Shown here: positions 1 through 39,200 of the stretch, in pieces
How positions within the stretch are numbered: the stretch's first letter is position 1
How the letters are laid out: the number at the start of each line of letters is the position of its first letter
Source of the DNA: Candidatus Colwellbacteria bacterium
GTDB lineage: Bacteria > Patescibacteriota > Minisyncoccia > UBA6257 > Colwellbacteraceae
DNA length: 64,000 nucleotides
Direction: 5' to 3'
Assembly (NCBI GenBank): GCA_028710275.1
Contig: JAQTUL010000004.1
Span: 11,646-75,645, forward strand
Made by a program: the position numbers and the translations under genes
The notes under the pieces: model-generated
Told to the model about the DNA's origin: nothing
Database searches by the model: none
What the model saw: the letters and a program-made list of their open reading frames with translations, nothing else

Positions 1-5
1 GATGT

Positions 6-2165
6 ATGGAGATTATCGGATCTACATTGCGTGATATTAAATTAAGATCTATTATTTTATGTACATCATGCCGATACAGATTTACATTGGATATCAACGA
101 TAAAACATTGGATAAGTACGGTATATTTTATAATCCGATAATTGAAGAACGAGAGAATCTTAAATGTGTGAAACCTTTCTATTGTAAAGAAGAAAGATCG
201 AAACTAGATCGGTGGGGAGTTGATCTTATTCCGGTTGATAAATGGAGAGAATTCTTTCAAAAAGATATCATATTTGGGAACTCTGTTTACAAGAAAAAAA
301 GAAGAGAATGTAATATTACTGATGAAAGTTTCGAAAAGAGTAAAAAGTCGAATATGAAAATGAAGGAATTTATAGCCCCTAATGGTCGAATATTTAATGT
401 TGATGGATATGAATCAAATGTTCTAAAACATCTTGTAAATTATATATCAGAAGAGAATATCATAACCGATTCAAGATGTATCCCAGTAATATCATACAAA
501 TATTTTGATGGTGAAAGAAAGTATTTCCCTGACTTTTACATACCGGAATATAATCTTCTAATTGAAGTTAAGAGCTTGAGAACATATTACGATAATTCAG
601 ATAAAAATATAATGAAGATGTTGTATTCGTTTTATACAGGATACAATGTCGAATTGTGGATAGTATCTAAAAAATACACATATATTTTATTCTTGTCTCA
701 CACACCTTCAGGTATGAATTTATACTATAAAATTATATTGAATAACAACGAAGATGAATATCTTTTTATGGTCGATGTGTGTAAGGGATATTTAGACAAC
801 AAATACTATATCAATAAAAAAGGATTGAAAGTATTGGTTATTTCAGAATGGATAGAATATAAAAGAATTAGAAGTGTGGTTAATGACATCTTTAAACCAC
901 ACGAAAACATTCATACTCTTAATGATCGCTGTAAAAAGTTGGAATCTAAAACAAAGACTAAATTGATTGAGATTGTTATCGAAAGTGATGTCGAAGAAGA
1001 AAAGGAAGAGAAAGTATCCGAATTGGTTGAGATCATTATGGAGAGTGAATCAGACGACGATATATCATTTGAATCTGTTGGAAAATATAATACAGATGAT
1101 GAAATAATCGTGCCAGATCTTTCTTCTTATTTTGAAGCTAAGACTTTTCACATACCTAGAGAGATAACAACCGATATTATGATGTCAGTAATGAAAGATG
1201 GTCGTCGATTCGATAAAATAGTCGATGTAATCATGAAACATTTAGAGAAATATCCATCATTCATATCATGTAGAAAATGGATTACCGATGAAGAATTATT
1301 CAAACGATACGATACAGGTATTATGAAAAGTGTCACTGTTGATGAGAATGATGTGTTGATAAGTAATACAAAATTTGTAGGATTTCTAAACTATTTTGTC
1401 ATGGACGAGATATTAAAAGTAAAAACAGGGTCTAGAAAACGTAACATTCACGATACATGGGATGATCATCAAACTCGTCGTAAATTAGTAGAAGACACTT
1501 TTAAGAACAAAGATTTGAAAGTGTTTACACCTATGTCCATTGAATCGAAATATTCTTATAGGGAATCTAGGGCGTACAATTTTCCTGTAAATATAGCATG
1601 TCATTTATACAATAAATATGGAGGAGAGAGAGTACTAGATTTTAGTTCTGGCTTTGGAGGAAGATTGATCGGATTTTGGAAATCCAACGCGAAAGAATAT
1701 GTTGGAATAGATCCTAATAAAAATATCGATTATAATAGTATACTCAAATGGGTGGGAGAAAATGATCCACAAAATAAAAAGGTCTCTATAATTAGAAAAC
1801 CTGCTGAAGATGTGGATTTTTCAACCTTGGGTAAATTTAACTTTGTATTCACATCGCCTCCTTATTACGATCTGGAGGTATATTCATCTGATGAATCTCA
1901 AAGTGTTTCGCGATATAAAACGTATAGTATATGGTTAGATAAATTTTTAAAGGTTGTAATAGATAAATCTATACATGTTTTGGAAATAGGGGGGTATCTC
2001 GCGATAAATATTCAAAATATCAAAAAATACAATATAGCAGATGATATGTGTAGATATTTAGATGATCGAAAAGAGTTAATTAGAAAAGAGGATATAGTAT
2101 ATAAAAAATCAACAAAGACAAAGAAGAATTTAGAACGAATCTATCTGTATCATAAATTAACTTAA
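6..2165 (+). CDS. Fusion protein: N-terminal PD-(D/E)xK restriction-endonuclease-like domain, acidic linker, C-terminal SAM-dependent gamma-class (HemK/N6-adenine-type) methyltransferase
   Basis: Nuclease motif '...YFPDFYIPEYNLLIEVKS' (PD...EVK). Methyltransferase motif I 'VLDFSSGFGGRLIG' followed about 70 aa later by motif IV 'FVFTSPPYY'. Long uninterrupted ORF. Confidence 0.55.
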   Translation: MEIIGSTLRDIKLRSIILCTSCRYRFTLDINDKTLDKYGIFYNPIIEERENLKCVKPFYCKEERSKLDRWGVDLIPVDKWREFFQKDIIFGNSVYKKKRRECNITDESFEKSKKSNMKMKEFIAPNGRIFNVDGYESNVLKHLVNYISEENIITDSRCIPVISYKYFDGERKYFPDFYIPEYNLLIEVKSLRTYYDNSDKNIMKMLYSFYTGYNVELWIVSKKYTYILFLSHTPSGMNLYYKIILNNNEDEYLFMVDVCKGYLDNKYYINKKGLKVLVISEWIEYKRIRSVVNDIFKPHENIHTLNDRCKKLESKTKTKLIEIVIESDVEEEKEEKVSELVEIIMESESDDDISFESVGKYNTDDEIIVPDLSSYFEAKTFHIPREITTDIMMSVMKDGRRFDKIVDVIMKHLEKYPSFISCRKWITDEELFKRYDTGIMKSVTVDENDVLISNTKFVGFLNYFVMDEILKVKTGSRKRNIHDTWDDHQTRRKLVEDTFKNKDLKVFTPMSIESKYSYRESRAYNFPVNIACHLYNKYGGERVLDFSSGFGGRLIGFWKSNAKEYVGIDPNKNIDYNSILKWVGENDPQNKKVSIIRKPAEDVDFSTLGKFNFVFTSPPYYDLEVYSSDESQSVSRYKTYSIWLDKFLKVVIDKSIHVLEIGGYLAINIQNIKKYNIADDMCRYLDDRKELIRKEDIVYKKSTKTKKNLERIYLYHKLT

Positions 2166-2811: not shown

Positions 2812-3033
2812 ATGGGAGCGACGGAAAGTAAAAGTGTAATCAAGAATGAACCCAAACGTGTAATCAAGAGTGAAAGCCTTTTTTGGGGTGCATGGTACGA
2901 TAAAACAGGAGATTATTCGGTAGGACCGGCAGTGACACTCTATAATGATCAGTCACTAAACGATTACAATCGTAAGATGACATTGTATGTTCTCGCTAAA
3001 CACAGACGTAAAGATGGGAAATATCACTTATGA
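2812..3033 (+). CDS. hypothetical small protein
   Basis: 73-aa ORF in an otherwise gene-free interval. Confidence 0.25.
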   Translation: MGATESKSVIKNEPKRVIKSESLFWGAWYDKTGDYSVGPAVTLYNDQSLNDYNRKMTLYVLAKHRRKDGKYHL

Positions 3034-5176: not shown

Positions 5177-6295
5177 ATGAAGATCGTCAATTCCAAACGT
5201 TATTTTCTTACACCTATTAATCTGGATAAGTTGATTAAGAGAAGATCACACAAGAGTTACCAAGCAGAATGCAGAATCAATCTTTCACACCCTGAAAAGA
5301 TCGAAGAGGGATACCGTTATATTCTAAATTACAACTGTCTTCATAAGGAGATTTACAAAAAACTTATCTCTGATATCAAAAAGTCCAATACGATCGATCA
5401 GAAAAAGGTGAAGATGGCGAGTGATATCTTCTGGTCACTTTTCAGTGATTCATCTATTTCCGCTGTAAATTTGAAGGCAATCGGTATATTAACAGGAACA
5501 GAATCGACAGGATATAATGTGATGACCCAAACTACAGCAAACAGTACAGGTGAAGCATCACTAAATTTTAACTTCTGGTGTTCCTCTCCAGCACAATTTG
5601 CATTTCTAAATATTGTTATTATCACAACAGGTGAAATCGACAGTATCAAGTTCGATAGCAAAATTATTCATTGTAGTTCTGATATCTACAGTATGATAGC
5701 GAATAAGGAGATTTACACTCCATCAACCGAAAAGGATATGGTTATCTTTTGTTCTGGTGGAACACTAACCAAAATCCAAGCGTCTCACGCTCAAAAATAT
5801 TATAGTGAAATTGTGTGTTCGTTTTCAGTTCCTTATATTACTGATCCAAAATTGTGTAAAGTAAGAGTATGGGGTGAAGATAGACAGATCGATGATGCGA
5901 ATTTTCTCTTTCAAGAAGAAGGAGAGAGTTCTGATGATATATTCGGTGCGAGTGAGTACTGGAAAGAGTATATCTGTCTCGATAAGAATCGAGTTGATGA
6001 TATTAAGAAAGGGAGAAAAATTTCGATATTGGTCTCTCCAATGGAGTATAAACTACCTGAATATATCATATCAAAGTATGTTCAGATGTGTGATGATATC
6101 GCCGAGCAGAAATTATTGTGGATTTTGTGGAAAACAGGTCAATCTCTTCCAACCAATTCAAACAAGTCGATATTCTCTCTTGATAAAATTAAGAGAGCGG
6201 AGATTGATGGAGGATCAAATCTCAGTCACGAGATTATGACGTGTCATAGCGCCGAAGAAAGAGAGATCGCACCGAAAAATGATATTCCGGAGTGA
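5177..6295 (+). CDS. hypothetical protein
   Basis: 372-aa ORF with no recognisable motifs. Confidence 0.45.
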   Translation: MKIVNSKRYFLTPINLDKLIKRRSHKSYQAECRINLSHPEKIEEGYRYILNYNCLHKEIYKKLISDIKKSNTIDQKKVKMASDIFWSLFSDSSISAVNLKAIGILTGTESTGYNVMTQTTANSTGEASLNFNFWCSSPAQFAFLNIVIITTGEIDSIKFDSKIIHCSSDIYSMIANKEIYTPSTEKDMVIFCSGGTLTKIQASHAQKYYSEIVCSFSVPYITDPKLCKVRVWGEDRQIDDANFLFQEEGESSDDIFGASEYWKEYICLDKNRVDDIKKGRKISILVSPMEYKLPEYIISKYVQMCDDIAEQKLLWILWKTGQSLPTNSNKSIFSLDKIKRAEIDGGSNLSHEIMTCHSAEEREIAPKNDIPE

Positions 6296-6323
6296 ATGAT
6301 TATAAATCAGAATATCCACTACA

Positions 6324-6743
6324 ATGGTATTTTATATCGACAAACTTAGTGTTACCGGTACGATGATGGACGGAGAGACCAAAATTCTAACTACTGAAGT
6401 GTATGAAGACTACATGTCTGATGAGATCGATTTTTGGACAGGAGATATCAAGAATATCATGCGTCTCGATTTTGAGTATTTACATTCGGAAGAAGAAAAT
6501 GATGTATGGAGCTTTATCGAGAAGCATTCGAAGTATCTCATTAATCTCCAATCAATCTCTTTTGCACAGCCTCTCGGAAGTTGTCAAACTATCGATACAT
6601 TTCTCATGATGATTCAATCATTGTGTAACGTACAGATTGATCATATAGAGACAGGGATCGTTGTATATTCATCACATGAAAAATCCGATAAACCATATCT
6701 CGATCGATATTTTAATATCAAAACTATCACAAGCATTTATTGA
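6324..6743 (+). CDS. hypothetical protein
   Basis: 139-aa ORF. Confidence 0.4.
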   Translation: MVFYIDKLSVTGTMMDGETKILTTEVYEDYMSDEIDFWTGDIKNIMRLDFEYLHSEEENDVWSFIEKHSKYLINLQSISFAQPLGSCQTIDTFLMMIQSLCNVQIDHIETGIVVYSSHEKSDKPYLDRYFNIKTITSIY

Positions 6744-6809
6744 ATAAAAATGAATTATTTTAAAAGATACGGTATTGCACTACAAATTTGGAAGTAATCG
6801 CAAAACCAG

Positions 6810-7454
6810 ATGTCTTCCGATAAAACAGAACGCAAAGAGGTTCCCATTATTTTCGAGGATTCAGATGATGAGCAGGAGGTGATTCTGGAAGAAATTTCTT
6901 CCGACAGCCAGGAAGTTGAACTCGAAGAGGAGAAATCTCCCAAGGAAAAAGAGAAGGATGATGGAAGTATGTGGTTTCATGAAAAGGGAAAATTTACTCT
7001 CCACGGATTTACGATGTACGATGTTCTCATCACACAAGAACAATTCCAGTACGTGGAGTATTTCAAACGATCAGTGCTGAGAATAGATCTTCCCGAGGGA
7101 TTGAGTGAAAAGTGGAGACATCCACTCATCGGTTCCATGAGAGATAGAATTGAAAATGAATATGGGATGAAAGTGAAGGGGGTGTTTGGGAATCATTACG
7201 AAAAAGAAGGAAACGACTATGCACCGTACCACAAGGATTCATACGGAGATGGAAAAGGAGTATTTACTGTGTCTATCGGAGGAACCCGTATGTTCTACAC
7301 AAAAGATGACAAGACTGGTGTTGTAACTAAACATAAACTCGATGACGGGGATCTATTTTATTTCAACTCACAGTTTAACTCAAAGCACAAACATTCAATT
7401 CCCAAACTTAAATCCTACAAGGATCCTCGTATCAGCATTGTGTTTTTTGTGTAA
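6810..7454 (+). CDS. AlkB-like 2OG-Fe(II) dioxygenase (nucleic-acid demethylase family)
   Basis: 'APYHKDSYGDG' HxD iron ligand, a downstream His, and the C-terminal 'RISIVFF' that matches the AlkB 'R(I/L)S(L/I)TFR' motif. Confidence 0.6.
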   Translation: MSSDKTERKEVPIIFEDSDDEQEVILEEISSDSQEVELEEEKSPKEKEKDDGSMWFHEKGKFTLHGFTMYDVLITQEQFQYVEYFKRSVLRIDLPEGLSEKWRHPLIGSMRDRIENEYGMKVKGVFGNHYEKEGNDYAPYHKDSYGDGKGVFTVSIGGTRMFYTKDDKTGVVTKHKLDDGDLFYFNSQFNSKHKHSIPKLKSYKDPRISIVFFV

Positions 7455-7842
7455 TCTGTCTCAATACTTTGTTCGTGGAATTCTCAACAACAATGGAGAG
7501 ATTGTTTATGTGTTTACACATATCAAGCATTTGAATAAACATCTTATTATTCAAAGCTAAAATTGAACTCAGTTGTGAATTTACACGCCCACAATCTTTA
7601 CACCCTGAAAGCTGGTTGTTAGGTGGGATATTCTCTTGCATTGGTATCTCTTCATATAGAGAACTCTCTAGTTTATCTGATTTCTCTTTTGAAATAATTA
7701 ATTCTCTCATAATAGCATTGGTCCTTGTATCAATACATTTTTTAGTCCTCTGTTGATGAGCTTTGAGATTGCTTTTGCTTGAGTAGGTTTTGTGACAATA
7801 TTGACACGTGTTTGTGACATCCTCTTTTATTACAGTTGTCAT
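7432..7842 (-). CDS. C2H2-type zinc-finger protein
   Basis: 'CQYCHKTYSSKSNLKAHQQRTKKC' C2H2 motif. Paralogous to the N-terminus of 27299..28264. Confidence 0.5.
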   Translation of the reverse strand: MTTVIKEDVTNTCQYCHKTYSSKSNLKAHQQRTKKCIDTRTNAIMRELIISKEKSDKLESSLYEEIPMQENIPPNNQLSGCKDCGRVNSQLSSILALNNKMFIQMLDMCKHINNLSIVVENSTNKVLRQITQKTQC

Positions 7843-7962
7843 TGGTTAATTACGTAACTAATCATTTAGATTAATTTTTCCATATTCAGATACAGTATCT
7901 GTAAAACTGATTATTTTAAATACGATATAGCATAATTTACTCTACCACGAACTTCCTATAAG

Positions 7963-8652
7963 ATGGCTTCGTCGATTTCTTTTGCCAGATGGTTGTGTCA
8001 TTTCCTCTGTGTTTCGAGTGATCAGGAAATCGACCTTGCTCCCGGACTTGACTGTCTTCTGTCCGGAATTCCGGACTCGGATGTTTCCGATGGAACGCGC
8101 AGATTTTTGGAGAAGAGATTTCCGAATATTTCGGAAGACAAGGTTATCGATGTGATCGATACCCTAAACAAGATGAGACGGATCATTCCACTCAAGATAT
8201 CATCATCCAAAACCTCAATCGTATGTACACCTGTCGATACCAATGGAGCACAATTTGATGATGTTTCATCCACAAATGAAACTGAAATTATCTATGATGA
8301 GGTTATCTCCCCCACGGTTGTGTTGTCTTCGTCCAAGAAGTTCACTTTCGATATCCATGGTGATGTTGTTCCGCTCAAAAATCTCAAGAGAGTGAATCTG
8401 ATATACTCATCGATCGTTCACAACACAACACATCGTCTTCGATTGAAAGTCTCTCTTATTGCTGACCGGGAAGAGGTATCCGAGTGTGACGTATACATCG
8501 GTATGATTAGACGCCAACTTCGAAAGGATAACAATCTGAAGAATAAGATCGATATGATGATACTTCGTGATGAGTACGAGAAACTTCTGTCATCATGTAA
8601 CCTATCAGTCGACGATGAAACAAAGAAAAGTATTAACAATTTCATCGGTTAA
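7963..8652 (+). CDS. hypothetical protein
   Basis: 229-aa ORF. Its stop overlaps the TAAAGCTCCGG motif, and a hairpin lies downstream at 8712..8739. Confidence 0.45.
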   Translation: MASSISFARWLCHFLCVSSDQEIDLAPGLDCLLSGIPDSDVSDGTRRFLEKRFPNISEDKVIDVIDTLNKMRRIIPLKISSSKTSIVCTPVDTNGAQFDDVSSTNETEIIYDEVISPTVVLSSSKKFTFDIHGDVVPLKNLKRVNLIYSSIVHNTTHRLRLKVSLIADREEVSECDVYIGMIRRQLRKDNNLKNKIDMMILRDEYEKLLSSCNLSVDDETKKSINNFIG

Positions 8653-8753
8653 AGCTCCGGTTTGATAACGTCAAACTCGTTCAAACTTTGACTCCAAGAA
8701 TAAAAACGATTATAATGTCTGGAATGTTCCAGACATTATAACTCAGTCCAGAG

Positions 8754-9647
8754 ATGAATCATAAATTTCAGCAGTTCCTCAAAAACAGCGATTTACTACC
8801 GAAGATTAATCAATCTCAGGGACAATATAGATATATACTTGATCTTATAGGATGTAAATGTATTCGAGATAGAGAAGTATTCGAGATTGATGATGAATGC
8901 CCCCATTTTCACCTTGATTATCCAAACGATTGTCAATCTATGATTATGTCATATTTTCAATCTCTGAATACAGATCTATTGGTTAAAAATATTCCTTTAC
9001 GATACGGAAAAGTAAAGGGAGTTATTAGAGAGATAGAAGACGATGGATATAGATTATCTCTTTTAGGATCTGATTATGAGCAGAAGATGGACGTTGAGTC
9101 ACACCTTTTATCTACACATATCAAAGATGTCCATAAAAAAATTGTTAATGGATTCGATGTCATGTCCTCGAAAAAGAAGCGATGGGGTGGATGGTCTATA
9201 TTTCTTGAAGGAGGTATACTCTATGGAAAAATAGAAATGGAACGTTGTTCCGAAAGATCAACCGTATATCATATCAGTAGAGAGTTAGCTGAATGCGCTG
9301 TGATTGTTGTTAAAAGAGATGTAACGACAATGATTGTACCGACTTATAAATACTTTCATAAGTACAAAACACACAGTATCTATCGTATGTGGAGATATAT
9401 TCAAAATAGATTGAGAGATATGGATGATAATCGTAAAATTCTCGACGAGGATTGTGATATGTTTTCTGTATATAATTTCGAAAATAATGTGTTAACTCTT
9501 GAGAAGAAAAAAGTTGTTTCATTTTCAAAAGCTACGGTAGGATCGTATCCTACTTGCCTAAGCGGTTCCAACTTTTCAAAGAAGATCAGTATAACCGAAT
9601 TCTCTCCTTTTCTCTCTTTCTGTCTGTTCGTTGTAGAGAAGTACTAA
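8754..9647 (+). CDS. hypothetical protein
   Basis: 297-aa ORF followed by a hairpin at 9660..9689. Confidence 0.45.
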   Translation: MNHKFQQFLKNSDLLPKINQSQGQYRYILDLIGCKCIRDREVFEIDDECPHFHLDYPNDCQSMIMSYFQSLNTDLLVKNIPLRYGKVKGVIREIEDDGYRLSLLGSDYEQKMDVESHLLSTHIKDVHKKIVNGFDVMSSKKKRWGGWSIFLEGGILYGKIEMERCSERSTVYHISRELAECAVIVVKRDVTTMIVPTYKYFHKYKTHSIYRMWRYIQNRLRDMDDNRKILDEDCDMFSVYNFENNVLTLEKKKVVSFSKATVGSYPTCLSGSNFSKKISITEFSPFLSFCLFVVEKY

Positions 9648-19489: not shown

Positions 19490-21379
19490 ATGCCTCCATC
19501 CCGTTCACGTGACGATGATGATGTAGTCGATAACTACTACGATCTGGACGATAAGGATTCTCGTACGGTCGGGATAAAGGAACTCGATCTAAATACTCTA
19601 TATCCACAGCATCCTCTCGACTATAAAAATGGAAGTAAATACTGTATTATCGGCAAGCCTGGTTGCCATAAGAGAGGTACAAAAATTATCTTGTTCAATG
19701 GTGAAACTAAAAATGTCGAAGATATTCAATTGGATGATGTGTTAATGGGAGATGATTCTACCCCTAGACATGTTTTAGGTCTTGCAAGAGGAAGAGAAGA
19801 AATGTACGATATTATCCCTACAAAAGGTGATAAATATACCGTAAATAAAAGTCATATTTTAACTTTAAAATCATCAGGATTTGCAAATCATCCCAAAGGT
19901 GAAGTGATAGATATTTCAGTCAATGAACTTCTTAATAAACAGCAGATATGGAGAACAAGATTCAAAGGATTTAAAGTATCGATTGAATTCGAAGAGAAAA
20001 AATTAGATATTCATCCTTATCTCATGGGATATTGGTTGGGAGATGGAACATCAAATAACGCTGAAATCACGACTGCAGATCACGAAATTGTTACGAATTT
20101 CGATTCGTTATTATATGAATATGGACTAAAATTAAGTAAGAGTGGATGTTCTCCGTACAGATATGGAATTACTCTTATTCATCAAAAAAATAGAAAGGGT
20201 AAAAACCAGTTTATGAACTGTTTGCGAGATAATAATCTTGTTAATAACAAACATATCACTCATCAGTATAAATGTAATAGTCGACAGAATAGGTTGGAAC
20301 TTCTTGCTGGATTGTTAGATTCGGATGGATCGTATAACGTGAAAAGTAAATGTTACGATTTTATACAAAAATCAGAGAAATTATTTGACGATGTTTTATT
20401 TTTAGCCAGATCACTAGGATTTGCTTGTTACAAACAACCATGTAAAAAATCATGTATGTATAAAGGAGAGAAACGAGAGGGTAATTATTTTAGATGTGTA
20501 ATAAGTGGAGACATAGACCAAATTCCATGTAGAGTAGAACGAAAAAAAGCATCCCCTCGTACACAAATAAAAGATGTTTTGGTTACAGGATTGAAAATGG
20601 TTTCTGTAGGAATTGATGATTATTATGGATTTGAACTAGACGGTAATAACAGATATCTTATGGAGGATTTTACAGTTACACACAACACCGGTAAATCAAC
20701 TATTATAAAATCTATTCTATACGCTAAAAAGCATATCTTTTCAGTAGGAGCATTTTGGTCTGGAACAGAGGATAGTAATGGGTTTTTCAAATCGTTTACA
20801 CCAACTACATTTATTAGAGATGGAATGATTGATGCGTCGAGTGCAGCATCACTTAAACCGTTAGAAGATCTCAATAAACGACAGAAGATCGCAAGAAAAT
20901 ATTTAGAACCCAGAGGAGATAATCCATGGTGTGTTGAGGTATTAGATGATTGTACTGCTGATCCTAAGTTCTTAAAGAAAACCGTTCTTAAGGATACTTA
21001 TAAAAATGGACGACACAAGGCTAAGATGCATCTTCTCTCGTTACAGTTCTGTCTTGATATTCCTACCGATACGAGAGGATTGATCGATGGTACATTTATT
21101 TGTCGAGAAGGTAACTCTAAGAATAGACTAAGATTATTTGAAAATTTTGGAAGTGGAGTCGACAATATTCACGATTGGAATGATCTTATGGATGGTCTCA
21201 CCGACGATTACTGTTGTATGTTTGTTAATAACAAGGCTACTACTAACAATATAGAGGATTGTATTCAATACTACAGAGCGGATCCTGATAAGATTCCTAA
21301 GGATTGGAAGTTCGGGTGTAAAGATTATTGGGACTTCCACTATGATAGATATAACCCTAACTTTGTCGAGACATTCTAA
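19490..21379 (+). CDS. A32-like virion DNA packaging ATPase containing an intein in the Walker A motif
   Basis: Exteins give 'CIIGKPG|TGKSTIIKSILY' (Walker A) and 'VLDDCTADP' (Walker B). They total about 290 aa, which is typical of A32. Confidence 0.8.
   Translation: MPPSRSRDDDDVVDNYYDLDDKDSRTVGIKELDLNTLYPQHPLDYKNGSKYCIIGKPGCHKRGTKIILFNGETKNVEDIQLDDVLMGDDSTPRHVLGLARGREEMYDIIPTKGDKYTVNKSHILTLKSSGFANHPKGEVIDISVNELLNKQQIWRTRFKGFKVSIEFEEKKLDIHPYLMGYWLGDGTSNNAEITTADHEIVTNFDSLLYEYGLKLSKSGCSPYRYGITLIHQKNRKGKNQFMNCLRDNNLVNNKHITHQYKCNSRQNRLELLAGLLDSDGSYNVKSKCYDFIQKSEKLFDDVLFLARSLGFACYKQPCKKSCMYKGEKREGNYFRCVISGDIDQIPCRVERKKASPRTQIKDVLVTGLKMVSVGIDDYYGFELDGNNRYLMEDFTVTHNTGKSTIIKSILYAKKHIFSVGAFWSGTEDSNGFFKSFTPTTFIRDGMIDASSAASLKPLEDLNKRQKIARKYLEPRGDNPWCVEVLDDCTADPKFLKKTVLKDTYKNGRHKAKMHLLSLQFCLDIPTDTRGLIDGTFICREGNSKNRLRLFENFGSGVDNIHDWNDLMDGLTDDYCCMFVNNKATTNNIEDCIQYYRADPDKIPKDWKFGCKDYWDFHYDRYNPNFVETF
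19664..20686 (+). mobile_element. intein (341 aa) with LAGLIDADG homing endonuclease, inserted in the packaging ATPase P-loop
   Basis: Starts 'CHKRGTKIILFNGE', carries LAGLIDADG blocks 'LMGYWLGDGTS' and 'LLAGLLDSDGS', and ends 'FTVTHN|T'. Confidence 0.75.
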
Positions 21380-36240: not shown

Positions 36241-39200
36241 ATGACCAGGAAAACTGATTTCCTCTATAAGAAGAAGCAAAATATCACACCTGTTCTTGTC
36301 TTCTCGCCAAGAATGTCTAAAGCTATCATTATCGAGTACGATTCGGAAGAGGAGATCCAGACACCGGATGAGAATTCGGATGTGGAAATTCTGGAGGAGG
36401 GAGAAGAGATCTTCGATGAGGATCAGGAGGAGACTAAGGAATCGGAACGGATTCCGGAAATGAAATCCCTGAAAATCTCCGGAGAAAAGAAGAGGAAACT
36501 TACGGAGGAGGAGATGTACGAGATTACGGACTTTCTTCAAGTTGATCCTGATAAAGACTGGGAAACATCGATGGCAGTTATGGATGAGAATCGAAACGAT
36601 CTCTTTGAGCAGTTGAAGAATATCGAGATCTATCCGAGTCAGATTCCTAAACTGAAGATGGGAATCAAAAACGATTATGAAACATCAAAGATTGAACCGG
36701 GTACCGCAATCGGGTGTGATAGTTCTCTCGCGATTGGTGAGCCGACGACACAAATGTCGCAGCCAAAGACGACTAAGGTCGTCTTGCGACAGGGTAACAA
36801 AACAATCAATACAACGATGGGGGAGTTCATCGACTCGGAGATTGAGAAGGCGTGGATGATCGTATCAGAGGACAATGGATCAGAGATTGTTCCAGACGGC
36901 GTATTCAAAGTGACAGAGATCATGACTGTTTCTAAAGACGAAAAGGTAAGTTGGAATAAGATTACCGAACTCTCTCGACACCCTGTGAATGGAGATCTTG
37001 TGAGAATCAAGACTGATAGCGGGCGAGAGACCGTTTGTACTCTCTCACATTCACTTCTCACTCGAAACCTTAATGGTGTGGTTCCTATTCTTGGAAGTGA
37101 TATTCAAGTTGGTCATCGAGTACCGGTGTTCTTTCGAACACCCGAAGTAGATAATCCTATCTCAGAGATCGAGTTGTGGAAAGATACTACGGTTGATCTC
37201 ACATCATCGTTCGGTGAGTTTATCGGAATCTACATCGCGGAGGGAAGTACTTGTAAGAGTAGTAATTCTGTTGTCGTTACCACTAATCAGGAATACTATA
37301 AAAATGTATCATACGAATTCTTTTCAGAAATGGGAAAAAACGCTAAAACAAGAGAAAAACCTCTTCATAAAATTCAGGGAAGTAAAAAGGAATATAAAAG
37401 CACGGATCACATAATCTCTCACAAGCTTCTGTCACAATGGCTTCGAACGAATATCGGTACCTACTCTCACAACAAGGAGATTCCTGGATTTATCTATGGA
37501 TGTAAGAGAGAGTTCATCGCGGGTGTTCTTCGTGGAATGTTTGATGGTGATGGTAACTTTCATGGATCGAGAAAAAGTATCAAGTATCACACAACATCGA
37601 GTGAACTCATCCAACAAGTTGCATTCCTTCTCTCGTATTTCGGTATCTTCTCAACATATCAGATCGAGAAGGAGGCTTGTGATGAACACAGAGCGTTGTG
37701 GGTTCTGTTGATCTTCGGACCCAAGTTCGGAAAGATTTTCTCCGAACAGATCGGAACTAACAACGAGAAGAATAAAAGAGAGCTTGATTCATACATCAAT
37801 GATAAGGATGGAAGAAATTTCATTGATCAGGTTCCCAACTGCGCTGAACTTGTTAGTAAGATTGGTAGAGGACTGAAACTTCCCGGCGCATCAAGAAACT
37901 ATGGTCGATGGGTGAAAAAGGAGTCTGAAGGATCTTGTATCGGTAAGAATACTCTGATCGAGTATGTGAAGCTTTTCACCGAAAAGAATGAAGAGAAAGA
38001 TGCAGGGTTCGAAGATGATATCTCTCTGCTTCAACAGGCGATCGACGCTGATGTGATCTGGGATAGAGTTGTTGAGGTTGAGATTATCAAGGCTGACCCT
38101 GACGAGAAGGTGTATGATTTCTCAGTAGCAATCAATGAAACTTTCGCTACTCAATCGGGTATCTTAGTACACAACACCTTGAATTCAATCGATTACAAAG
38201 AGCATATCGTGGTCAAAAACGGTACATCTGTAACATGCCCAAAGATTGGCGACTTTGTGGATAAAATAGTCATTGATAATAAGAAAGATGTCAAGGTTTA
38301 TGATGAGGTTACCGAATACGTAGACATCAATTTCATGAACCTGGAGACACCATGTGTCGATGAAAATGGAAAAATGCATTGGAAAAAAATAGAAGCTGTC
38401 ACCAGACATCCACCTCCGGGAGGTAATAAACTTTTGGAGGTGAAAACTCAAACGGGACGTCGAACAACTGCAACAAAAGCTAAATCTTTTTTGCTGCGAA
38501 GAGATAACAAAGTGGTCGGGGTAAATGGATCCGAATTGACAGTTGGAGATAGACTTCCGGTCACTGTTAAGTTTCCGAGACCTCTTGAAAATGACCGATT
38601 GAAAACCATCAATCTAAGTAGATATCTCAGTAAAGAGAAATTCGTATTTGGAACTGATCTCTGGAAAGCAAGAGAGATTAAGGAGAGATACAATAAAGGT
38701 GGAAGAAAAGAATGGAAAGACGAAATTAGAGAGGAATATACATATGGAGGAAGAAATACCAGATGGTGGTCTGATAATTTCGGAATCGATTTCACTCTCC
38801 CGTATCATAGATGTGATGCAGCAATGGATGCGCTCGAAGGAAAGAAGAAGGAGTATATCGGAAATGAGATTATCAAGAAAGGAATGGTGTACACAACAAG
38901 ACGATCTGTTGGAGAAGTGAATGAAATCCCAGAAGAGTTTGAACTGGATAACGATTTCGGATTTGTTGTTGGTGCTTACATTGCTGAGGGACATTGTGCA
39001 AATACCGGAACACAATGTATCATCAGTAACAATGATGAAAAGTTTCGAAAGAGAATTGAGACGTGGTGTGATAAACATAAACTCGGATATCATGTTCAGG
39101 TACAACACGATAAGAATTTTAAGGGAGCAACCAGTACAGATCTCCGAATTCACTCAACGCTAATGGTTGAATGGTTTACCAACATGTGTGGTAACTATTC

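Follow-up and report, generated by a model that had tools for sequence, protein, structure and literature searches.

The stretch of DNA analyzed here (the window) comprises 64,000 nucleotides (nt) of contig JAQTUL010000004.1, and at its very beginning lies a gene for a protein in which a predicted nuclease and a predicted methyltransferase are joined in a single chain. An earlier interpretation made from the letters alone (the sequence-only reading) had described this gene as an open reading frame (ORF) at positions 6 to 2165. The frame is real, as the ORF list and the translation of the window give 719 codons plus a stop on the forward strand, and at ~30% GC a frame that stays open over 720 codons does not arise by chance; its start had been misplaced, however, because the window begins inside a longer gene. 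Bases 3 to 8 (TGT ATG) encode Cys241-Met242 of a 960-amino-acid (aa) database protein, P0001 (MDD4930851.1), which is 100% identical to the ORF across all 719 residues and in which the residues '...HNCPGC' precede the first Met of the window (residue 242). The complete gene spans 5944-8826 of the source contig (locus L014), and its first 723 nt, together with a major capsid protein (MCP) gene located 98 nt further upstream, fall outside the window.

The window contains genes for an intein-bearing Rpb1, Hsp70, a WWE-PARP protein, and a ResIII helicase, and the MCP gene just upstream is of the nucleocytoplasmic large DNA virus (NCLDV) type. With this capsid, Rpb1, Hsp70, and PARP content, the window is giant-virus DNA, and the contig was therefore probably mis-binned in its metagenome-assembled genome (MAG), which is labeled 'Candidatus Colwellbacteria bacterium' at NCBI and in which MDD4930851.1 carries the locus tag PHG66_01695.

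Six database proteins matched the ORF, five of them with the whole architecture and one with the nuclease domain only. In an alignment, the architecture was common to five full-length homologues (50-80% identity), and the order of domains was an N-terminal domain, three zinc ribbons, a DUF7487 nuclease of the PD-(D/E)xK type, an acidic linker, and a methyltransferase module of ~350 aa (Table 1). The nuclease is preceded by ~345 residues, made up of the conserved N-terminal domain and the three CxxC...CxxC zinc-ribbon units, whose cysteines are invariant among the homologues; this basic region (pI ~9) probably binds DNA. Since base 6 of the window corresponds to Met242 of a 960-aa protein, the nuclease is central and not N-terminal, as had been assumed before. 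A second copy of either the nuclease or the methyltransferase domain was not found elsewhere in the window.

Table 1. Features of the nuclease-methyltransferase gene, the adjacent capsid gene, and nuclease fusions of the methyltransferase module in relatives
Feature	Window position (nt)	Strand	Residues of P0001, locus, or proteins	Remarks
Nuclease-methyltransferase gene, 3' three-quarters	1-2165	+	Codons 241-960 + stop	960-codon gene
Conserved N-terminal domain			1-135	Outside window
Three CxxC...CxxC zinc-ribbon units	3-71 only		~90-265	Basic, pI ~9
Third zinc-ribbon unit, second half	3-71	+	Cys241 ... Cys260-x2-Cys263	Cut by window edge
DUF7487 PD-(D/E)xK nuclease core	315-692	+	345-470	PF24308, E = 1.8e-21
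Putative catalytic residues of nuclease	Glu 411-413, Asp 531-533, Glu 564-566, Lys 570-572	+
Post-nuclease extension (beta hairpins and helices)	693-947	+	471-555	Conserved among close homologues only
Acidic linker	948-1115	+	556-611	Variable length and sequence; pI 4.05
Methyltransferase module	1116-2162	+	612-960	Conserved
Helical N-terminal domain of module	1116-1592	+		Ends with motif X-like 'YNFP' (nt 1578-1586)
Rossmann-fold catalytic domain	1593-2162	+
Motif I, DFSSGFGG	1638-1661	+
Motif II acidic residue	1710-1712	+
Motif IV, TSPPY	1851-1865	+		Protein ends 99 residues later
MCP gene			L014 4406-5845	Upstream of window
DUF7487 nuclease fusions			P0008, P0009, P0011, P0014, P0029, P0041
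HNH_3 fusions with NUMOD4/NUMOD1			P0018, P0021, P0024, P0028, P0037	Weaker match in P0015
LAGLIDADG_2 fusion			P0101	Precomputed Pfam annotation

The nuclease core matched the Pfam family DUF7487 with 77.6 bits against a cut-off of 27, over profile positions 110 to 219 of 220. The PD-(D/E)xK motifs pointed out previously are present (nt 528-536 for 'PDF', nt 561-572 for 'IEVK'). In P0001 the motifs read GYE377, PD417, and E428-V-K430, with E377, D417, E428, and K430 invariant or nearly so, and the catalytic E-D-ExK set is kept in 11 of 13 aligned nuclease domains. Among 11 family members, the PHROG 'endonuclease' model phrog_15137 matched 10 and a 'Holliday junction resolvase' model matched 4, and some nuclease relatives also matched the TnsA-like N domain. 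AlphaFold2 (AF2) predicted the core as alpha-beta-beta-beta-alpha-beta, with a predicted local distance difference test (pLDDT) score of 80-90. Foldseek, run with a model of the N-terminal 560 aa, found no entry in the PDB at E ≤ 1e-3 (best E = 0.07), and a profile of the nuclease core matched none of the PDB sequences. Because no solved structure matched significantly, we base the putative PD-(D/E)xK fold on sequence families and motif conservation.

In two fused homologues, P0013 and P0016, the catalytic residues of the nuclease are gone, with GHD/PS/DVK and QQL/PS/DIR in place of GYE/PD/EVK, while the methylase motifs are intact; this asymmetric decay resembles that of orphaned restriction-modification (R-M) methylases. 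The acidic linker noted in the sequence-only reading is indeed present, with 19 D/E among its 56 residues, and it is here that the alignment is least conserved and has the most gaps.

The methyltransferase module was modeled by AF2 with a pLDDT of 90.6 and a predicted template modeling (pTM) score of 0.88, as a helical domain of ~160 aa, which is a candidate DNA-recognition or clamp domain, followed by the Rossmann domain. The order of its motifs is X-I-II-III-IV. It had been called an S-adenosylmethionine (SAM)-dependent methyltransferase of gamma order, and this holds insofar as 'DFSSGFGG' precedes 'TSPPY', but both halves are beta-like and stand in swapped order, as set out below. When the model was compared with the PDB by Foldseek, class I amino-methyltransferases were retrieved, with EcoKI HsdM first (the match spans 298 columns), followed by rRNA and tRNA methylases and METTL5; Trm11, TrmN, and RsmD-like entries scored alike. 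In a viral structure library, full-length matches with template modeling (TM) scores of 0.73-0.81 came from pithovirus-like MAGs, a klosneuvirus, and salmon gill poxvirus.

An exhaustive profile search placed the module in a family of 5,042 cluster representatives at E ≤ 1e-3, of which 3,442 remained at E ≤ 1e-10. In all of the best 150 relatives, an invariant (T/S)SPP(Y/F) is preceded by D-x3-G-(W/F/Y)-G-(G/D). No Pfam model covering the whole module was found, the NCBIfam scan gave no match, and PADLOC returned a weak MTase_II match only. PF01555 (N6_N4_Mtase) matched 38 of 69 relatives (best E = 1e-19), always over profile positions 2-107 of 221, which represent the motif IV-VIII half.

The best PDB sequence matches obtained with the family profile were the rotifer DNA N4-cytosine methylase N4CMT (8s9m/8s9n, E = 1e-3) and 2zie, and both halves of 8s9m and 2zie aligned to the profile in swapped order. 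The module runs X-I-II-III and then IV-VIII, and the beta order (IV-VIII, recognition domain, X-I-III) was not encountered. Since both halves match in this way, the module looks like a circular permutant of the beta-class N4/N6 DNA methylases that has ended with a gamma-like motif order. It shares with beta-class methylases (PF01555; N4CMT, 8s9m; TTHA0409, 2zie) a similar SPPY-type motif IV, motifs V-VIII, and an 'FP...VLDxxxGxG' motif X-I, whereas the recognition region is N-terminal in this module and lies between the halves in beta-class enzymes. The sequence 'FTSPPY' fits the PROSITE N4-methylase signature, and on the basis of this signature and the N4CMT match, the product of methylation is probably N4-methylcytosine (m4C). 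The rotifer N4CMT is a biochemically characterized DNA N4-cytosine methylase (PMC10406627).

The sequence-only reading had compared the protein with Type IIG/IIL restriction-modification enzymes. Like Eco57I, BpuSI, and MmeI, it has on one chain a PD-(D/E)xK nuclease followed by a SAM-dependent amino-methyltransferase in which motif I comes ahead of motif IV, and it may share their logic of cutting unmarked DNA and marking its own. The hallmarks of Type IIG/IIL enzymes are a gamma-class N6-adenine methyltransferase with NPP(Y/F/W), a C-terminal recognition domain, and an N-terminal Mrr-type nuclease; these enzymes also cleave in a SAM-dependent manner, at a fixed distance from their asymmetric site, and are blocked by their own methylation. 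The Pfam check suggested for N6_Mtase (PF02384) and Eco57I (PF07669) gave neither in a scan at E ≤ 10, which returned DUF7487 and a weak Bin3 match only, and motif IV is TSPPY, not NPP(Y/F/W). A target-recognition domain C-terminal to the methyltransferase is not present, in agreement with the earlier remark that no specificity domain follows SPPY. Neither is a PD-(D/E)xK domain of the Mrr type present at the extreme N-terminus; the nuclease is a DUF7487 domain with TnsA-like and Hjc-like affinities, set behind ~345 aa of N-terminal domain and zinc ribbons, and its host is a eukaryotic giant virus. Homology between Type IIG/IIL enzymes and this protein was not detectable. By sequence, the protein is not a Type IIG/IIL enzyme, and the likeness is one of architecture and possibly of logic, not of ancestry. 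Nor must target recognition reside in a 350-aa middle region, as had been argued, other candidates being the upstream zinc ribbons, most of which the window does not include, and the helical domain of 160 aa in the methylase module.

Most relatives of the module in IMG/VR are stand-alone proteins of 360-430 aa that span the whole module, and frequently 2-5 paralogues stand in tandem (as on the IMG/VR contigs L016, L020, L021, L027, and L028). Full-length PF01555 methylases (E = 1e-40) and a D12 N6-adenine methylase are interspersed in these arrays, whose neighbors include thymidylate-synthase-like, PP-loop, Asn-synthase/QueC-like, pyridoxal phosphate (PLP)-enzyme, DnaB, PolB, and clamp-loader-like AAA genes. 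They look like DNA-modification islands of large phage-like viruses. Because the stand-alone relatives sit in such islands, DNA is the likely substrate, and we are largely confident that the methylase of this protein acts on DNA. One protein, P0007, was considered as the nearest stand-alone methylase and was rejected, as a scaffold gap splits its gene and the upstream ORF holds the nuclease.

In nearly all fused relatives examined, the module occupies the extreme C-terminus, with 0-24 residues beyond it. Its partners include DUF7487, HNH_3, and LAGLIDADG_2 nucleases (Table 1), and P0106, P0116, and P0120 appear to group with the LAGLIDADG_2 fusion on account of a shared LxGDG-type motif and their position in the tree; further N-terminal partners are AP2, HTH, and TnsA-like domains. 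All of the closest relatives come from viruses or metagenomes and have homing-endonuclease partners. In a rough neighbor-joining tree built from the module, fusions to different nuclease types are intermingled, which points to repeated exchange of the nuclease.

The gene is found 3' of the MCP gene not only in L014 but also in L002/L003, L011, and L013, and it again lies ~100 nt beyond the MCP gene at the P0003, P0005, and P0011 loci, whose MCPs are 98%, 97%, and 90% identical, respectively. At L010, where the MCP is 64% identical, an HNH-type fusion occupies the same post-MCP place. This MCP (L010 3228-5791) is itself split into Capsid_N and Capsid_NCLDV ORFs by an insertion with an opposite-strand 228-aa ORF, and the L010 contig carries a second HNH-methylase fusion from 13437 onward.

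We then surveyed 44 metagenome loci with MCP homologues, 32 of which had at least 1 kb of downstream sequence. Just 3' of the MCP gene, 13 DUF7487 ORFs were present in 11 of these 32 loci (L094, L096, L097, L101, L106, L113, L117, L127, L128, L132, and L137), in either orientation and, for 11 of the 13, at a distance of 4-625 nt from the MCP stop; none was present in 125 kb of sequence upstream of the MCP. The methylase module was attached to none of the 13 ORFs, and a stand-alone methylase after the MCP (an 'empty site') occurred in none of the surveyed loci. At the same spot, a virus with a 91%-identical MCP has a 788-aa protein with zinc ribbons and a PD-(D/E)xK domain, whose nuclease core is 23-34% identical. 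The MCP 3' flank is a hotspot of DUF7487 nuclease genes, and the pattern is as expected for free-standing homing-endonuclease-like genes beside a highly conserved target gene. Fast evolution or replacement of the gene within its clade, suggested by 90-98% identity for the MCP versus 36-80% for the gene, was considered and rejected, as neighboring genes diverge equally fast.

An alignment of the L014 intergenic region (5846-5943) with L002, L011, and L013 revealed that L014 and L002 have in common a GAAC...GTTC element, resembling a hairpin, immediately behind the MCP stop, and an A/T-rich block ('TTTAAAACTG...') ahead of the fusion gene in L014 and L002 that is shortened in L011. The two elements may serve as terminator and promoter. 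Across the window, the Mimivirus early-promoter motif AAAATTGA shows no enrichment (4 matches versus 9.7 expected). Directly downstream of the fusion gene are two forward-strand ORFs, one for an acidic protein of 195 aa (2189-2776) and one of 73 aa (2812-3033), with no Pfam match. In the P0003 relative, both are replaced by a 49-aa ORF with 59% identity to the 73-aa protein over 44 aa, and the downstream flank is therefore also variable.

Our preferred interpretation, to which we assign a probability of roughly two in five, is that the protein is a nuclease akin to homing endonucleases with a protective DNA methylase of its own attached, and that it resembles R-M systems in logic while being unrelated to them by descent. 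The N-terminal two-thirds would function as a homing-endonuclease-like, site-specific nuclease, the zinc ribbons recognizing the target and the PD-(D/E)xK core cutting it, and the methylase would act on DNA, probably yielding m4C, and mark the nuclease's sites in the virus's own genome. The nuclease would then cut sites left unmarked in element-free relatives that infect the same cell, or perhaps in host DNA, and this would favor inheritance of the element or exclude competitors. By ancestry the protein would be a chimera of homing endonuclease and methylase; its logic would, plausibly, be that of single-chain restriction-modification. The main argument for coupling is that the methylase is found at the MCP flank only as a nuclease fusion and that three unrelated nuclease families are joined to it in the same order.

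Several observations weigh against this interpretation. The main one is that many sister nucleases at the MCP flank lack a methylase, so that tolerance of such a nuclease does not in general depend on methylation. In its own clade, the gene diverges at the rate of its neighbors and looks vertically inherited; as it diverges no faster than they do, recent mobility of this gene is unsupported. As for the methylase, neither the window protein nor full-length P0001 matched PF01555 at the Pfam threshold, and the Foldseek comparison with the PDB does not separate DNA from RNA amino-methylases. In addition, a sister subfamily with GWGD in motif I includes P0065, in which a capping enzyme and an N7 methylase are joined to two modules, and P0129/P0141, which combine FtsJ, the module, GNAT, and a tubulin-tyrosine-ligase-like (TTL) domain, and these fusions hint at RNA substrates somewhere in the family. 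Finally, single-molecule real-time (SMRT) sequencing detected no DNA methylation in amoeba-infecting Mimiviridae, viruses that are not established as carriers of the gene (PMC7253447).

The alternative that survives best is an accidental or convenient fusion, in which a homing endonuclease of the MCP flank was joined in frame to an orphan methylase and the two halves act independently. As with classical free-standing homing endonucleases, differences at the target site would keep the nuclease from cutting its own genome, and the methylase might guard viral DNA against nucleases of the host or of competitors, or mark DNA for some other purpose. Such a history would account for the DUF7487 genes that stand at the MCP flank of 11 loci with no methylase and for the makeup of the two families, since DUF7487 nucleases are mostly small stand-alone proteins and the methylases are mostly stand-alone as well. 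The variable acidic linker resembles a former intergenic spacer, and in P0013 and P0016 the nuclease has decayed and the methylase persists. Yet nucleases of at least three unrelated families have been joined to the module, each time in the same order, no MCP locus has the methylase alone, and both sets of catalytic residues are kept in the fusion across 36-85% sequence divergence. We regard independent halves as rather unlikely.

Coupled halves could also represent a previously undescribed class of selfish elements, namely, 'immunised' homing endonucleases with an attached permuted m4C-type methylase, whose nucleases (PD-(D/E)xK, HNH, or LAGLIDADG) are exchanged between lineages. In such elements the methylase would protect its own genome at the nuclease target, here probably at or near the capsid-gene flank, and the nuclease would attack unmethylated copies in co-infecting relatives, so that the element spreads or competitors are excluded. 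From the sequences at hand, we find the existence of this class doubtful; were it true, it would provide an evolutionary bridge between homing endonucleases and restriction-modification in eukaryotic viruses.

The comparison with free-standing homing endonucleases ('intronless homing' by Seg/Mob of phage T4, and I-Ssp6803I, which has a PD-(D/E)xK fold) revealed several likenesses. The nuclease gene neighbors a gene of high conservation (here the MCP gene), only some of the related genomes have it, it occurs in either orientation, and unrelated nuclease types appear at one spot; moreover, the fusion partners of the relatives are classic homing-endonuclease families. Known homing endonucleases cleave alleles devoid of their gene and are copied into them, and they achieve self-protection by target disruption or sequence differences, with no covalently attached methylase. 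Homing endonucleases of giant viruses have been proposed as weapons between competing viruses (PMC5871332). Giant viruses such as chloroviruses and Marseilleviridae use nuclease and methylase pairs, and their DNA carries N6-methyladenine (m6A) or m4C (PMC7253447). In those systems R and M are separate genes that clearly descend from bacterial Type II systems, while here the two activities would be fused and the nuclease is homing-endonuclease-like. In the literature searched, neither this fusion nor the methylase family nor a nuclease hotspot at the MCP flank was described; single-chain nuclease-methylases and giant-virus R-M were already known (PMC7253447).

In another model, the zinc-ribbon and nuclease half serves as a DNA-binding platform that delivers the methylase to its sites, with cutting being weak, limited to nicking, or lost; the role might be regulation, or a replication or packaging mark near the late capsid gene. 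The nearest fold match, HsdM, needs a separate specificity subunit, the partners of the module include the pure DNA-binding domains AP2, HTH, and NUMOD, and variants with a dead nuclease persist, all of which would suit delivery. Nevertheless, the module most often stands alone and then presumably locates DNA without help, and the conservation of E-D-ExK described above argues for selection on cleavage, so we judge this model improbable.

No more credence is given to the possibility that the module methylates an exocyclic amine of RNA (cap, rRNA, or tRNA) in the manner of Tgs, RsmD, or Trm11, the nuclease half being an unrelated passenger or an RNA- or DNA-targeting domain. Its signs are the capping-enzyme/N7-methylase and FtsJ fusions (P0065 and P0129/P0141), the RNA methylases among the top fold matches, the full-length structural homologue in a poxvirus, and several family assignments: the RsmD-type Cons_hypoth95 (PF03602) matched relatives weakly and over motifs I-IV only, three relatives matched the Tgs-type Methyltransf_15 (PF09445), and two are named RsmD in the JGI annotation. 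However, all RsmD matches stayed below the Pfam threshold. This protein matched neither PF03602 nor PF09445, the best individually scanned close relatives reached at most 22.8 bits against a cut-off of 24, and the RsmD-like PDB entry 2esr gave E = 0.06-0.35. By contrast, DNA m4C methylases were the best match to both halves with the family profile, the motif X-I 'NFPxxxAxxxY...VLDFxxGxGG' is as in DNA methylases, the relatives reside in islands of DNA-methylase and replication genes, and their arrays of 2-5 paralogues suggest multiple sequence specificities; the fusions to RNA enzymes are confined to the other (GWGD) subfamily. These matches, the methylase islands, and the zinc ribbons likewise speak against an alignment with RNA or protein methyltransferases of the HemK/RsmC type devoid of DNA-binding elements, which the sequence-only reading had named as its counter-case.

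Acquisition from bacteria of a true Type IIG/IIL enzyme of the Eco57I/MmeI/BpuSI kind is very improbable and such membership is largely refuted, since the single-chain order of domains and a top Foldseek match to the gamma-class EcoKI HsdM that is only marginally above many RNA methylases are set against the lack of any N6_Mtase, Eco57I, or NCBIfam match, the TSPPY motif with no C-terminal recognition domain, a DUF7487/TnsA-like nuclease behind zinc ribbons, beta-like halves, and closest relatives that are viral or metagenomic.

If the halves cooperate, R-M logic would have been reinvented in eukaryotic giant viruses from homing-endonuclease-type nucleases and a permuted, probably m4C-type methylase, and two classes of selfish DNA enzymes that are usually kept apart would be linked. 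If they are independent, the protein is a clear fusion of a homing-endonuclease-like nuclease and a viral methylase, of ordinary interest. The module also defines a viral methylase family of ~5,000 cluster representatives without a whole-module Pfam model, and new sequence-specific nucleases and methylases might be obtained from proteins of this kind. The hotspot at the MCP 3' flank could explain mosaicism around the most widely used marker gene of giant viruses and could matter for competition between co-infecting viruses.

Elsewhere in the window, a 930-aa protein (58110-60902, forward strand) has a C-terminal class I methyltransferase domain (Methyltransf_23/11) that is unrelated to the module of the fusion, its N-terminal 780 aa being uncharacterized. 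The Rpb1 ORF (36241-41190, forward strand) contains intein splicing and LAGLIDADG_3 domains, and a 629-aa ORF (19490-21379, forward strand) contains Hint and LAGLIDADG/Hom_end domains; these two are further mobile endonuclease elements in the window.

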